Sequence record: OR621298
Source of the DNA: Escherichia phage vB_EcoD-Elw
Length of the DNA: 64,000 nucleotides
Direction: 5' to 3' (one strand)
Shown here: piece after piece, positions 4,518 to 8,755 of the stretch
How positions within the stretch are numbered: position 1 is the first letter of the stretch
Layout: the number at the start of each line of letters is the position of its first letter
The notes under the pieces: model-generated
What the model was told of the DNA's origin: nothing
Database searches by the model: none
The model's input: only the letters and a program-made list of their open reading frames with translations
Position numbers and translations under genes: made by a program

Positions 4518-4946
4518 ATGTTCAATAATGTATTCTCTAAAGAAGCTAACCCAATTTTGGTTAACTTTTGGCGTACTCTCCCGGCTAGCCTGTATAATGA
4601 GGCTATTAACTCCTTGAAAATATGGTGTGAGAATAACGAAATCTCCTTTGCTTTTAAAGATGATATTGATGAGGCCCCCTGTATTGGTCTAGTTGTGCAG
4701 GTAGAGGAGGGTCTTGAAGAGATTGTGGGCTGGAAAGAGTTAGACGAAATGGGCTTAGTTTTTGCGTTAAATTATAAGCTGTTTATGCCTGCTAAGCATC
4801 GCCTAGTTGTTAACTATAAAACTAGTGAATCTCCTGGTTTTCAGGTTAATGAACGTTATGGTTGGTCTTACTCACCGGAAGAAGTAAATGATGGTATCCA
4901 AAAACTTCGTCGTTTTGGTTATCAAATTCCGGGTTTAACCGCCTAA
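4518..4946 (+). CDS. hypothetical protein, tandem paralogue A
   Basis: 142 aa; shares DEAPCIGLVV, ELDEMGLVFALNY and YQIPGLT motifs with the next ORF. Confidence 0.5.
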   Translation: MFNNVFSKEANPILVNFWRTLPASLYNEAINSLKIWCENNEISFAFKDDIDEAPCIGLVVQVEEGLEEIVGWKELDEMGLVFALNYKLFMPAKHRLVVNYKTSESPGFQVNERYGWSYSPEEVNDGIQKLRRFGYQIPGLTA

Positions 4947-4955
4947 GGGGGCATA

Positions 4956-5348
4956 ATGGAACAAGTATATTGGCGTCAGATTGATCCTAGTTTGGTGAAG
5001 CGTGCGGAGAAGCTGCTACAACGTTGGTTGGTGGTAAGACAAGTCTCCTTCACTTTTCCGGAGCAGCAAACGGATGATCCATGCATTGGCGTTTTCCTGT
5101 CTGGATATGCCGGGGAATGGGAATTGGATTGGAATGAATTGTCTGCTATGGGCTTGATTGTTGCCCTAAACTTCTCTATATTCCATCCACGTGGTTTGGC
5201 CATATGTCGTGTGCCTGATGACGGTTGTTCGCCCCATCTTTTACAGGTGGAAGATGATATTTGGGAGTACACTCCAGATATTCTCGCAGAAGCTAAAGAA
5301 CAATTAAATCGTGTTGGGATTTATGTTCCGGGCTTAAATGATGGATGA
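4956..5348 (+). CDS. hypothetical protein, tandem paralogue B
   Basis: 130 aa; DDPCIGVF, ELSAMGLIVALNF and IYVPGLN motifs parallel the preceding ORF. Confidence 0.5.
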   Translation: MEQVYWRQIDPSLVKRAEKLLQRWLVVRQVSFTFPEQQTDDPCIGVFLSGYAGEWELDWNELSAMGLIVALNFSIFHPRGLAICRVPDDGCSPHLLQVEDDIWEYTPDILAEAKEQLNRVGIYVPGLNDG

Positions 5349-5439
5349 TTTTTATTAGCTAAACTCTGATTACCGAGTCATTTTGGCTCGGTTTTATCCG
5401 TACTTAAGACCAATGATAGCACCATCCGGAAAATTTTAC

Positions 5440-5468
5440 TTGCATGATGCCCAAAATCTTGATATAAT
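5440..5468 (+). promoter_or_regulatory. early sigma70 promoter with conserved leader
   Basis: TTGCAT 5440-5445 and TATAAT 5463-5468, 17-bp spacer; leader tatttatattgaattgagag. Confidence 0.6.
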
Positions 5469-5965
5469 ATTTATATTGAATTGAGAGACATTAGTAAAAA
5501 TTGATTTTGCTAATTTTTCTTGTTTACAATCCGCGATACGGAACAGTTAGGCTGCCCCATTAAGGGTTGTTTTAACTATTACTAGTGTTTATATTGCATT
5601 AGTTAATCTTCAATTAAGTGATCTGTGTACCCTGAATTCGGAAAGGTAAATCCAAACCGTGCATATTTAGCTCGTTATATAGGCAGAGTTTTATATGGGG
5701 GTGCGAACGAAAAGAGCAGCGAATGGCGGCACGTACAGTAGTCACCTACCAATAGGATAGTGAGGACAAATAGAATCGGCTTAGCGGCCAATGACCTAGG
5801 TTCTATTCTGTATATGAGCGAAGAGAGCACAGCACTGAGATATGATAACTTATTCATATTGCTTGATGATAATTAATGTTTACGTAAATAGTAGTAATAG
5901 TTGTTCTATTCTTTCTGAATAGTCCTAAAGAAAAGATTTCGATTAACCAACACAGGAGTATTGTT

Positions 5966-8755
5966 GTGTTTTCTATTCTCCAAGGTCACGCCGGATTTTC
6001 TCGTGATTTAGCAACAGGTATTTGGCGAGAAATCAAAGCGGAAGATTATACCTTTGCCAAGCGATTCTCGAAAAAGCATCCAGAAGGTAAACCAGCTTCT
6101 ATGCCCTTCAAATTTGATGTAATAGAAGAGCATGACCCGCAAAGCCTTGCCGAAATGTTACCACTTATGAGACGTTTAACGTCTGACCCTCATATCGTTG
6201 CGGTACGAGGTCGATGTCTTGCACCTAAAAATAACGTGCGACGTAAGAAAGGTAACTTTAATGTATCTAATCCTAGTAATATTATTGCTATGGACGTGGA
6301 TGGTATCCTAGATACCGGTGGGTATGACAAGTTTAACCTTGTTGGTATGGCCCGCCACATTATTAAGATGTTGAATAGTATTAGTGAGGACATGTTCCCT
6401 CTTGATGCAGGCTTTATAGCTCATGCATCGTCTTCGGCTGGGCTTAAACCAGGTATCCGAATGCACTTAATGCTAGAATCTAACGTCAAGGTAACTCAGG
6501 GTCAGTTAAAGTTCTTATTTACATCTATCAACGATAGTAGTAAGCAAAAATTTGGTTTTGATATTGCCGACTTAGCTTATTATTCATCTGTCCAGCTCCA
6601 CTATTTTGCCGACCCCTTATTTAGTGATGGTATTGTTGATCCGTTTAAAGCGGAGAGTAAGCCACGTCTGGTGTATGTTAAAGGTTCGAAAGTAAATTTG
6701 CCCAATAATCTGGTTGACTATGAAACAACTAGAGGGGAGTTTAAGGAAGAGTTTTATTCTTTACTTGATCAAATTAAAGGCAAAAAGATCGCGTCTGATA
6801 AAGTAGAAGAAACCATCAGCGAATTGGAAGAAGCTGAGGATGGGGTGTACCTGCGTATTATCCCCAAACTATACCATAGAGCATTAGAGGATGGTGTTGA
6901 TTTTGCATGGCTAGAACGTGAGATTAAACCCGCTTTATCTGAATATATTGCAACTAAAGATAACAGTCGTAATATTCAAGATTACTTTAATAACGGTCGT
7001 AAGCAGGCTCTCAAAGCGTTTGTTAATAATTCTAAACGTGAGATTCCATTAAATCTGAAAGGTGTTCCGCTCAAGAAGTTAGAAGTGGATTCTCCACCAG
7101 AAGTTCCGTACCTGAAGATTAACATTGTGCCTCCAAAAGGCCATATAACATTTGTTAAGGCAAGTCTTGGTACTGGTAAAACTACGGCAGTAACTAAATG
7201 GCTGGACGCAGGTGTTCTTCCTGGCAACTTTTTAGCAGTTACAAATACTAGAGCACTGGTATCTTCAAACGCTAAGAAATTTAGCGCAGGACAATATGAT
7301 AAGTCTGTAGATATGCTCAACTTTAAACGTGGAGCTATTGATCGTATGTCCACAACTATTCACTCTTTGCATAAGTTCAAAAGTTTTATTGGTCAAATAG
7401 ATACCATTTTTATTGATGAATGTGATGCTGTAATGAATGATCTATTATTCGCACCTGTTGTTAAGCAACGTCGCGAATGTATTCAAGTTCTACGTGACAT
7501 CCTCATGACAGCTAAAACTGTAATTCTATCAGATGGTGATATTAGTGCCGAAACTATTGAAGCATATGGTTCTCTAATTGATTTTGATAAACCAGTAGCA
7601 TTTTATAATCATCACCGTAAGATGCTGTCAAAAGCTCATGCTTATGAGTTCCCGGATGAGTCCAGTATTTGGGTTGCACTTCAGACTTCTCTAGAGATGG
7701 GTGAGAAATCTATCCTAGTATCTGATTGTGGGCCGGATGAACTGAATGAGAAGGGCATGGCGTTGCGTCGTAATACGGGTGCATTAGTTAAGGAAATCCA
7801 CTCAAACTCTACGTCTGATGTAGATATTAGACGTATTCTGGATTACACAACTAATGAGCTAATTGACCAACAAATTGATTGCTTATTATGTAGTCCATCT
7901 GTAACGAGTGGTGTTGACTTTAACTATTTTGATAACGTATTCGTTATCACTAGAACTAGCAACCAAGCGCCAAACATGCGTTTCCAAGCAATCAGGCGCG
8001 ACCGTGGTGCTCAGAATATCTATTATTTTATTGATAAATCCACTAGTGGGTTCTCCGCAGGTTCTGAACAATATAATATTGATGAAGGTTGGCTGGAGTT
8101 AGCACAGCAATTATACGCACGTCGCAGAGAACTAGAATCTAGGAACTATACTAGTACTTTACGTTATTACTTGCTTGATCAGGGTGCAACTATTGATATT
8201 TTCAGCGAAAGCTGGGGAACTATTGAAGGTGCTGGTAAAGAATACACAGAAGAGCGAATCAAAGCTATCCTACATTCAACTCCGGATTACTGTGCACCAC
8301 GTCATGCGGATGCGTATGAGGCTAAACTACTTCTTGTTCGCTATTATCATCTTGAGTCTATTAAAGATGTAACAGTTGAGCATGTTGAACAATATATCAA
8401 AGATAAACCGAATGATCGAGCTGCATTCTTCCATAAGATGCACGAGATGTTCTGGGAAGATATTAAGAAGTGTTCAAATGTGACCATTAAACCATTCATA
8501 GAGGCTCTGAAAGGTAAGAAGAAAGACTTCTTCCTTAAAACAGGTCAGAGTGCTAACCCAAAATATGCTAGAATGTATCTTGGTATGATGGGTATTGGTA
8601 AGGATATGAACACTGAAAATATTGTAGACTGGTACAGAACCTATTGTAAAATCGAGTGTATGCCAATCCCATATAAGTTTATGACTGATGAGGAGAAACA
8701 TATGCATGATGAAGCAATGGCAGAGCTAGGTGCTAGAAATGACAGTGAAGAATAA
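5966..8755 (+). CDS. P-loop NTPase, putative helicase or replication-initiation ATPase
   Basis: 929 aa; Walker A SLGTGKTTAV and DEAD-like IFIDECD; GTG start with AGGAG RBS. Confidence 0.55.
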   Translation: MFSILQGHAGFSRDLATGIWREIKAEDYTFAKRFSKKHPEGKPASMPFKFDVIEEHDPQSLAEMLPLMRRLTSDPHIVAVRGRCLAPKNNVRRKKGNFNVSNPSNIIAMDVDGILDTGGYDKFNLVGMARHIIKMLNSISEDMFPLDAGFIAHASSSAGLKPGIRMHLMLESNVKVTQGQLKFLFTSINDSSKQKFGFDIADLAYYSSVQLHYFADPLFSDGIVDPFKAESKPRLVYVKGSKVNLPNNLVDYETTRGEFKEEFYSLLDQIKGKKIASDKVEETISELEEAEDGVYLRIIPKLYHRALEDGVDFAWLEREIKPALSEYIATKDNSRNIQDYFNNGRKQALKAFVNNSKREIPLNLKGVPLKKLEVDSPPEVPYLKINIVPPKGHITFVKASLGTGKTTAVTKWLDAGVLPGNFLAVTNTRALVSSNAKKFSAGQYDKSVDMLNFKRGAIDRMSTTIHSLHKFKSFIGQIDTIFIDECDAVMNDLLFAPVVKQRRECIQVLRDILMTAKTVILSDGDISAETIEAYGSLIDFDKPVAFYNHHRKMLSKAHAYEFPDESSIWVALQTSLEMGEKSILVSDCGPDELNEKGMALRRNTGALVKEIHSNSTSDVDIRRILDYTTNELIDQQIDCLLCSPSVTSGVDFNYFDNVFVITRTSNQAPNMRFQAIRRDRGAQNIYYFIDKSTSGFSAGSEQYNIDEGWLELAQQLYARRRELESRNYTSTLRYYLLDQGATIDIFSESWGTIEGAGKEYTEERIKAILHSTPDYCAPRHADAYEAKLLLVRYYHLESIKDVTVEHVEQYIKDKPNDRAAFFHKMHEMFWEDIKKCSNVTIKPFIEALKGKKKDFFLKTGQSANPKYARMYLGMMGIGKDMNTENIVDWYRTYCKIECMPIPYKFMTDEEKHMHDEAMAELGARNDSEE

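Follow-up and report, generated by a model that had tools for sequence, protein, structure and literature searches.

Replication proteins of several phages control their own synthesis through structured leaders, as do T4 gp32, gp43 and RegA. The gene 32 pseudoknot leader, the gene 43 operator hairpin and the RegA sites all lie in structured 5' leaders of replication-protein messenger RNAs (mRNAs), and operators of this type span 20-100 nucleotides (nt). A different use of RNA is found at the ColE1 RNA II, T7 phi1.1A/B and T4 oriF/oriG origins, where a strong and possibly tandem promoter fires into an A/T-rich region beside replication functions; in ColE1 the fold of a transcript of about 550 nt decides whether priming occurs. 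A third group consists of large non-coding RNAs (ncRNAs), of which GOLLD and ROOL are phage-borne, several hundred nt long, multi-domain and supported by covariation (PMC12286853). Here we compare these systems with a locus in a 64,000-nt stretch of DNA from Escherichia phage vB_EcoD-Elw (sequence record OR621298; the whole stretch is called the window below), a relative of phage T5. The intergenic gap at 5349-5965 directly precedes D2, also called obp, the gene for a helicase that in T5 is UL9-like, has been studied biochemically and has been proposed as the replication initiator (PMC3632103). Within this gap, positions 5536-5930 of the + strand specify a hitherto unannotated RNA of about 390 nt with a conserved multi-helix fold.

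The principal evidence for this RNA is the covariation between the arms of its helices. The earlier note on this DNA, made from the letters alone, had proposed a structured RNA or regulatory leader in the gap and had suggested checking, among related phages, whether it is conserved and covaries. The comparison of 11 divergent homologues, with shuffle and slide controls, came out in favour of that proposal. These homologues, from B-type T5-like phages (defined below; the window is A-type), two Klebsiella phages, My1 and DU_PP_V, were placed in a plain MAFFT alignment, in which RNAalifold found 16 helices with 85 consensus pairs in all; compensatory changes affect 45 of these pairs. Shuffles gave 19.3 +/- 3.1 compensatory pairs. 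Paired cells amounted to 89.3% against 78.5 +/- 0.7% in shuffles and the covariation score was 0.366 against 0.193, and for each of the three measures 0 of 500 shuffles reached the observed value. When the partners were slid by 1-3 columns, paired cells fell to 40-45% and compensatory pairs to 14-17. In a hand-curated table of seven lineage representatives, ten elements (helices P1, P2, P3 and P5-P10 and the loop-loop pairing PK1) are pair-compatible throughout, each of them in four to seven sequence versions and at a near-constant distance from a conserved 5' motif. The compensation thus goes beyond what phylogeny and base composition account for, as is generally asked of a new structured RNA family.

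Closer relatives give the same picture on a smaller scale. For 17 distinct A-type sequences RNAalifold gave 128 pairs, six of them compensatory, with very few broken cells. Between T5-type phages and Epseptimavirus, both sides have changed and still pair in P2, P7, P7a, P8 (two pairs) and P9, as in the swaps of A-U to C-G in P7 and of U-A to C-G in P7a, and a compensatory change of A-U to G-C in P9 separates A from A' sequences. The variable paired columns of the A-type are otherwise mostly exchanges between Watson-Crick and G.U pairs. Folding also distinguishes the two strands. The single-sequence minimum free energy of the window's element is -105.5 kcal/mol on the + strand (z = -2.2) and -83.5 kcal/mol on the - strand (z = -1.3), and a B-type sequence reaches z = -3.0 on its + strand. 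From one and the same alignment, consensus folding yields 85 pairs and -36.7 kcal/mol for the + strand and 46 pairs and -24.8 kcal/mol for the - strand, with a covariance term of 4.95 versus 1.19. The strand so defined agrees with the polarity of the promoter at 5440-5468. We regard it as very probable that a real RNA structure under selection lies on the + strand.

The folded core lies within P1 (5573-5903), a closing helix around two domains, and comprises at least nine covarying helices. One isometric architecture (P1, P2, P3 and P5-P10 with a probable pseudoknot) is found in Tequintavirus, Epseptimavirus, Sugarlandvirus, Myunavirus and Hongcheonvirus, whose sequences are largely unalignable; to judge from these sequences, what is conserved across many T5 relatives is the folded shape and not the sequence. 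P1 pairs 5573-5584 with 5892-5903 and is extended by the A/U-rich P1b (5586-5613 with 5863-5890). The first hint of an RNA helix came from an inverted repeat at this place (5574-5591 and 5885-5902), because its arms change together: it reads AACTATTAC...GTAATAGTT in the window, AACTGTTAC...GTAATAGTT in T5, with G.U pairing, and AACTGTTAC...GTAACAGTT in the B version. Over seven lineages P1 has five distinct complementary versions, and one of its pairs appears as A-U, G-U and G-C. P2 joins 5623-5628 (CUGUGU) to 5827-5832 (GCACAG) and occurs in four covarying versions (CUGUGU/GCACAG, CUGCGU/GCGCAG, CUACAC/GUGUAG and CUAGAA/UUCUAG), the two strands lying at +80 to +89 and +280 to +293 from the 5' motif in all seven lineage representatives.

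The 5' domain (5630-5727) contains the equivalents of P3, P4, P5 and P6, and P3, P5 and P6 have four to five complementary versions apiece. The loop of P5 and the 3' half of the P8 loop probably form a pseudoknot, PK1, for which the versions UUAAGG:CCUUAA/G, GAGG:CCUC, CAUGU:ACAUG and UAGG:CCUA were found. In the A version of the window this domain is the least certain part of the fold model. The central domain (5733-5813) is closed by P7 (5733-5738 with 5808-5813), which surrounds the hairpins P7a (5741-5767) and P8 (stem 5769-5777 with 5799-5807). Across lineages there are seven versions of P7, for example GUACAG/CUGUAU, GUCCAG/CUGGAU, CCUCAAU/AUUGAGG and GCAAC/GUUGU, and six of the P8 stem, for example AAUAGAAUC/GGUUCUAUU, GCAAAUCU/GGAUUUGU, CCACA/UGUGG and AUACG/CGUAU. 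Hairpin P9 (5839-5860, with 5839-5845 paired to 5854-5860) has seven stem versions. The 3' hairpin P10 (5906-5911 with 5917-5922) and the conserved tail GUCCUAAAGAAA together occupy 5906-5930, and other lineages have hairpins of different sequence at the position of P10 (CUAUC/GAUAG and CUUUCC/GGAAAG). Since no T-run follows it, P10 is not a terminator, and the end of GUCCUAAAGAAA at about 5930 is the probable 3' edge of the element. Beyond it, alignment A1 shows a variable linker of roughly 15-20 nt (5931-5949) and then the conserved ribosome-binding region of D2, CCAACACAGGAGUAUUGUU, which extends up to 5965 with AGGAG at 5954-5958. A direct repeat, GTTCTATTCT, occurs three times, at 5800-5809 (the 3' strand of P8), 5903-5912 (P10) and 5970-5979 (codons 2-5 of D2). 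As it is restricted to the A version, it probably arises as a by-product of the fold and is not an iteron.

Several unpaired segments are conserved as sequence. The 5' motif AUACGGAACAGUUAGGCUGCCCC (5536-5558) has no demonstrated pairing partner and is kept as ATAC[GA]GAACAGTNNGGCTGC in all five genera named above (in RNA form, AUAC(G/A)GAACAGUNNGGCUGC). The P8 loop GGCUUAGCGGCC (5778-5789) contains the octamer CUUAGCGG at 5780-5787, which is identical in 11 of 11 compared hairpins, drawn from seven lineages of phages with enterobacterial hosts and from Aeromonas phage TS3 (both of its hairpins). The loop GCUUAGCGG is unchanged in the same five genera, in Priunavirus and in a Proteus-like clade (L048/L049), and it recurs in TS3; each CUUAGCGG loop is closed by a different stem. 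According to an automated scan, P8-type hairpins upstream of D2 have four to nine contiguous pairs, with eight to nine in T5-type and Klebsiella phages and only four in My1 and L048. Elsewhere in the window, UUAGCGG is flanked by stems of just two to five pairs, and within the window neither the P8 loop nor the 5' motif has further copies or antisense targets above chance level. The B-type, Klebsiella, My1 and DU_PP_V sequences share a segment 3' of hairpin P6, GAGAAGUG, and RGUUGCCAY as the loop of P9. Both are replaced in the A version of the window, where the P9 loop is UAACUUAU, and this makes the window's version the more derived. For the 5' motif, GAGAAGUG and the P9 loop there are candidate tertiary contacts, such as UUGCUAA with the P8 loop, none of which is kept in all lineages. 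A likeness of GAGAAGUG and GCUUAGCGGCG to segments of 5S ribosomal RNA proved unsupported, since the scans matched no Rfam family.

The gap before D2 is a trait of the virus family. A tblastn search with the N-terminus of D2 gave 905 phage records, and in every Demerecviridae genus examined there is a gap of 590-1590 nt, annotation-free or dubiously annotated, directly upstream of D2 and in the same orientation. It measures 598 nt in Klebsiella Sugarlandvirus, 590 nt in Pectobacterium phage My1 (Myunavirus), 600 nt in DU_PP_V (Hongcheonvirus), about 710 nt in Providencia phages PSTCR5 and PR1 (Priunavirus), 820 nt in the Proteus-like IMG/VR phage L048, 712 nt in Vibrio phage Brizo, 728 nt in Vibrio phage 70E34-6 and 1590 nt in Aeromonas phage TS3. 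The genes further upstream vary between phages, and D2 is the only neighbour constantly linked to the RNA. The window's gap shares 97% identity with T5 (58.9-59.6 kb) and 99.9% with Salmonella phage MET_P1_100_107. As a query, the non-coding sequence matched 441 records. In 274 of them the alignment covers 80% or more of the query; these constitute the A version, with T5, the window and Epseptimavirus (about 94%) among its members. In most of the other matching records the flanks alone align (37-43% coverage in the rows listed) and the total length is equal. In this B version roughly 5585-5890 is swapped for unrelated sequence (alignment A1), and the islands identical between A and B are GGCTTAGCGGCC, TAGTTAAT, GATCT and the entire 3' tail. 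An nhmmer profile built from the divergent (B/K/D/M) alignment recovers the A version with E of about 1e-20 and does not recover the Providencia, Proteus-like, Vibrio or Aeromonas regions. The homology of the Providencia, Proteus-like and Aeromonas regions is therefore argued from a P8-type hairpin and from position only; the Vibrio phages yielded no such hairpin. Scanning IMG/VR and metagenomes for the motifs returned T5-like contigs and, besides these, matches consistent with the few expected by chance. The three non-T5-like matches in IMG/VR all fall within long open reading frames (ORFs), and five of the metagenome matches were not recognised by the sequence hidden Markov model.

The more distant loci have features of their own. 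In L048, whose D2 is 63% identical, perfect 12/12 sigma-70 promoters at 1205-1233 and 1935-1964 bracket a non-coding region of roughly 700 nt, which holds a P8-type hairpin, its loop being CCUUAGCGGG, and another site like it, GCCUUAGCCG. TS3 (L015, 19-1608) has a 1.6-kb non-coding region before D2 with two UUAGCGG-loop hairpins. A related IMG/VR phage, L059, has a comparably long region at about 900-1800, and internal stems shared by the two covary (CUAGUG/CACUAG versus CCAGUG/CACUGG). Both regions end with a long stem followed by a T-run, as read by eye; the scanner did not report it. The Aeromonas-type region may be an expanded or duplicated form of the RNA.

The structured RNA is a new family, absent from Rfam 15, from the records examined and from the searchable open-access literature. 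At gathering thresholds Rfam 15 has no match in the window. With lax filters and E values up to 10, applied to the window gap, eight homologous loci and the DU_PP_V and L048 gaps, no match recurs between homologues, and those obtained score 13-34 bits against gathering thresholds of 34-114. One of them, a MicF match of 33.8 bits (gathering threshold 79, E = 0.21) in the terminator and promoter region upstream of the NR01 copy (L007, 543-630), is most likely due to chance. None of the public records examined has an RNA feature at the locus, the gap being blank or filled with spurious small ORFs, and in two independent T5 records a terminator and an early promoter are the sole annotations before obp. 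We found no description of an RNA or of a mapped origin at this locus in the open-access full-text literature.

Although T5 belongs to the seven classical T phages, to our knowledge neither its replication origin nor the way its initiator helicase is controlled has yet been defined at the sequence level. With an RNA directly before the initiator gene, both questions can be approached through a concrete element open to mutation. The RNA is also a new class of large structured RNA in a cultivable model with genetics, where most such RNAs, GOLLD and ROOL included, come from poorly tractable sources. The region merits annotation as an RNA feature, and for engineered T5-like therapeutic phages it is no neutral insertion site, apart from the point in the leader at 5513/5514 where natural insertions occur.

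An intrinsic terminator that ends the upstream operon (CCGAGTC...GGCTCGG and a T-run, 5373-5397, + strand) is annotated as rho-independent in two T5 records, from which its position was transferred (L001/L002, 3074-3098). The earlier note had read a promoter at 5440-5468, a conserved early leader and about 490 nt without a convincing ORF before the GTG start at 5966, and each of these readings stands. The promoter is a strong early sigma-70 promoter with TTGCAT as its -35 at 5440-5445, a 17-nt spacer, a TG-extended -10, TGATATAAT, at 5460-5468 and an A/T-rich tract upstream; it coincides with the 'putative early promoter T5P32' of two independent T5 records (about 5424-5493 of the window) and is nearly unchanged among eight aligned phages. 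A simple promoter scanner missed it, since its -35 has only three of six consensus matches. From this sequence transcription should start near 5473-5475, which would give a leader of about 490 nt up to the GTG. The unstructured 5' leader (5473-5535) contains the T5 early-leader consensus TTGAGAGA, and the ORF list has nothing longer than 60 amino acids (aa) in the gap on either strand. A second and weaker promoter-like site, TTGATT-18-TACAAT, was reported by the scanner at 5501-5530, 60 nt past the main one; it is invariant within the T5 group and missing from the Klebsiella phages. The position 5513/5514 tolerates insertions (97 nt in NR01 and its relatives, a T/C-run expansion in KKP_3822; alignment A1), which places it outside the folded core, and natural insertions are confined to the leader ahead of the core. 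The insertion hot spot can be seen in L007 at about 745-840, in L006 and in L005 at 1-700, the 97-nt insert being common to NR01 and Kenya-type phages. In Shivani an HNH homing-endonuclease gene has been inserted upstream and a copy of the promoter leader is duplicated.

In the window the scanner reported no + strand terminator downstream of the RNA and ahead of D2, and sequences read by eye from Klebsiella phages, My1 and DU_PP_V have no terminator-like stem with T-run before D2. In T5-type phages the RNA is therefore necessarily the 5' leader of the D2 mRNA. Of the roles that such an RNA may have, we tentatively favour the regulation of D2 in cis, because the RNA is on the D2 transcript wherever homology is secure, because D2 has a weak GTG start and because replication proteins elsewhere are autoregulated. 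An early protein would recognise the folded RNA through the invariant P8 loop, and D2 itself would be the obvious candidate, being a UL9-like helicase and a binder of structured nucleic acids. Binding at the loop might set D2 output through translation from the weak GTG, through mRNA stability or through processing, and the initiator would thereby be held at a controlled dose, as T4 gp32, gp43 and RegA are on their own leaders. What the element has in common with the T4-type leaders is a hairpin or pseudoknot as candidate protein-binding site on an early transcript, together with a start codon whose weakness suggests dosage control.

A number of observations weigh against this proposal. No conserved pairing of the RNA with the D2 ribosome-binding site was found outside the T5 group: a pairing of 5533-5539 with 5956-5962 is restricted to that group and absent in the Klebsiella phages, My1 and DU_PP_V. 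Neither occlusion of the ribosome-binding site, nor an alternative pairing, nor an expression platform is conserved, as would be expected of a cis-acting leader. In the Proteus-like phage L048 a 12/12 promoter lies between the non-coding region and D2, in Vibrio phage 70E34-6 there are terminator-like hairpins before D2, and in two Aeromonas-type loci a long stem and T-run, seen by eye only, occupy that place. In these lineages, it seems, the D2 mRNA does not have to include the element, although the homology of the L048, Vibrio and Aeromonas-type regions to the T5 RNA, on which this apparent uncoupling turns, is partial or unproven. Finally, with about 390 nt, at least nine helices and a pseudoknot, the element far exceeds the known translational operators, and it has no similarity to T4-type leaders in sequence or by covariance model.

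The transcript may alternatively belong to a replication origin, which we consider rather doubtful. The promoter or promoters at 5440-5530 would fire into the primary T5 origin, and the RNA would act as a pre-primer or R-loop former or as a loading platform for D2. Origins usually adjoin the initiator gene, and here the gene for the family's origin-binding-protein homologue, the proposed initiator, is adjacent. The region falls at 48.5-48.9% of the length of the T5 genome (121.75 kb), and T5 origins have been mapped 'near the centre' (bioRxiv 10.1101/866236), a position never mapped to sequence. Downstream of two tandem promoter-like sites, whose arrangement recalls the T7 primary origin, there is an A/T-rich segment (5850-5949, 25% GC), as at the ColE1, T7 and T4 origins described above, and the transcript is comparable with ColE1 RNA II. 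Moreover, the adjacency to D2 survives the apparent transcriptional uncoupling, which a cis element linked through DNA explains better than a translational leader does.

Against an origin stands the absence of iterons, DnaA boxes or conserved direct repeats: only short repeats in two or three copies were found, GTTCTATTCT among them, and neither the B version nor other genera retain these. The A/T-rich segment itself belongs to the covarying P1/P1b. One recent study argues that T5 replication is mainly unidirectional and starts at a genome end (PMC10055335). The element has no homology to the ColE1, T7 and T4 origins and no hybrid-forming G/C stretch was identified in it. We also know of no T4 or T7 origin transcript that needs an elaborate conserved fold. 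That this is the primary T5-like origin working through RNA, whether because an early transcript of conserved tertiary fold remains on its template, acting as pre-primer or R-loop, or because it presents the invariant GCUUAGCGG hairpin, and so recruits D2 to open the duplex, appears unlikely to us; if true, a virulent tailed phage would have an RNA origin that depends on structure, and an entire virus family would share it.

It is likewise unlikely that the RNA is a free-standing ncRNA acting in trans, cut from the leader or, in some lineages, separately terminated. Its roles could then be those of a protein sponge, a ribonucleoprotein scaffold, an anti-defence decoy or a ribozyme, and the adjacency to D2 would be mere synteny. 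The size, multi-domain fold, probable pseudoknot and invariant loops do resemble 'ornate' RNAs more than leaders, and the interior has been swapped as a module among T5-like phages while the P8 loop stayed constant. Distant lineages have a promoter before the non-coding region and then a terminator or second promoter before D2. The T5-type phages, the Klebsiella phages, My1 and DU_PP_V lack such a terminator, however, as noted above. The RNA was also never found apart from D2, and no complementary target was found within the window. GOLLD and ROOL, near tRNA clusters, are the closest RNAs of this kind. The element here is smaller, occurs in Demerecviridae only and always precedes the same gene, D2, and it does not match either family in Rfam even at E up to 10.

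A still weaker alternative is that the inverted repeats act at the DNA level, as protein-binding sites or extruded origin hairpins, and that the RNA has no role. D2 is a homologue of UL9 (PMC3632103), which binds the OriS* hairpin of herpes simplex virus 1 oriS, and P8, as a hairpin with an invariant recognition-like octamer and covarying arms, would on its own fit a DNA hairpin site of this kind. OriS* is, however, single-stranded DNA, and the covariation here extends far beyond one hairpin to the long-range helices P1, P2 and P7, which span 75-330 nt and are nested as in RNA. The + strand helices contain 172 G.U cells against 18 A.C, a count that is biased in that prediction on the + strand itself allows G.U, and for which the two-strand consensus comparison is the fair test. 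This strand bias, the nested long-range helices and the strong promoter of the same polarity directly upstream indicate, at the level of sequence comparison, a folded RNA and not DNA hairpins, and we consider a purely DNA-level element very improbable.

That the gap holds unannotated small protein genes or a decayed gene can be dismissed almost entirely: a few records do place short hypothetical proteins there and the window has ORFs of 38-60 aa, but these mostly have GTG or TTG starts, no ORF keeps its position, frame or sequence between lineages, nothing translatable is shared by the A and B versions, and substitutions track base-pairing and not codon periodicity. From lineage to lineage the longest ORFs agree neither in strand nor in place nor in sequence, and the window's 60-aa ORF on the minus strand has only 38 aa in Epseptimavirus. 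The short conserved ORF that the earlier note had named as an outcome against a structured RNA was accordingly not seen, and its failure to find a tRNA cloverleaf agrees with ARAGORN, which reports no tRNA or tmRNA gene in the 64-kb window.

The genes on either side of the gap deserve a brief description. D2/obp (5966-8755, + strand, GTG start in the ORF list) encodes a 929-aa UL9-like SF2 helicase, the 'replication origin binding protein' (Pfam Herpes_ori_bp; PHROG 3712). In its N-terminal part, residues 105-210 (within window positions 5966-6600), D110-x-D112, S155/S157/G159...G163-I-R-x-H167 and D202 are invariant in seven genera. We take these motifs to be like the DxD, sGxGxH and hD motifs of archaeo-eukaryotic primase (PrimPol), for which sequence searches gave no confirmation: the domain has no sequence match in Pfam or PDB, and a single-sequence AlphaFold model of it was unusable (pLDDT 39.5). 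Upstream, the gap is flanked by a DUF7415 gene at 4956-5348, a homologue of T5.107. It is adjacent to a paralogous DUF7415 gene at 4518-4946, and each of the two contains two stretches that match the family.

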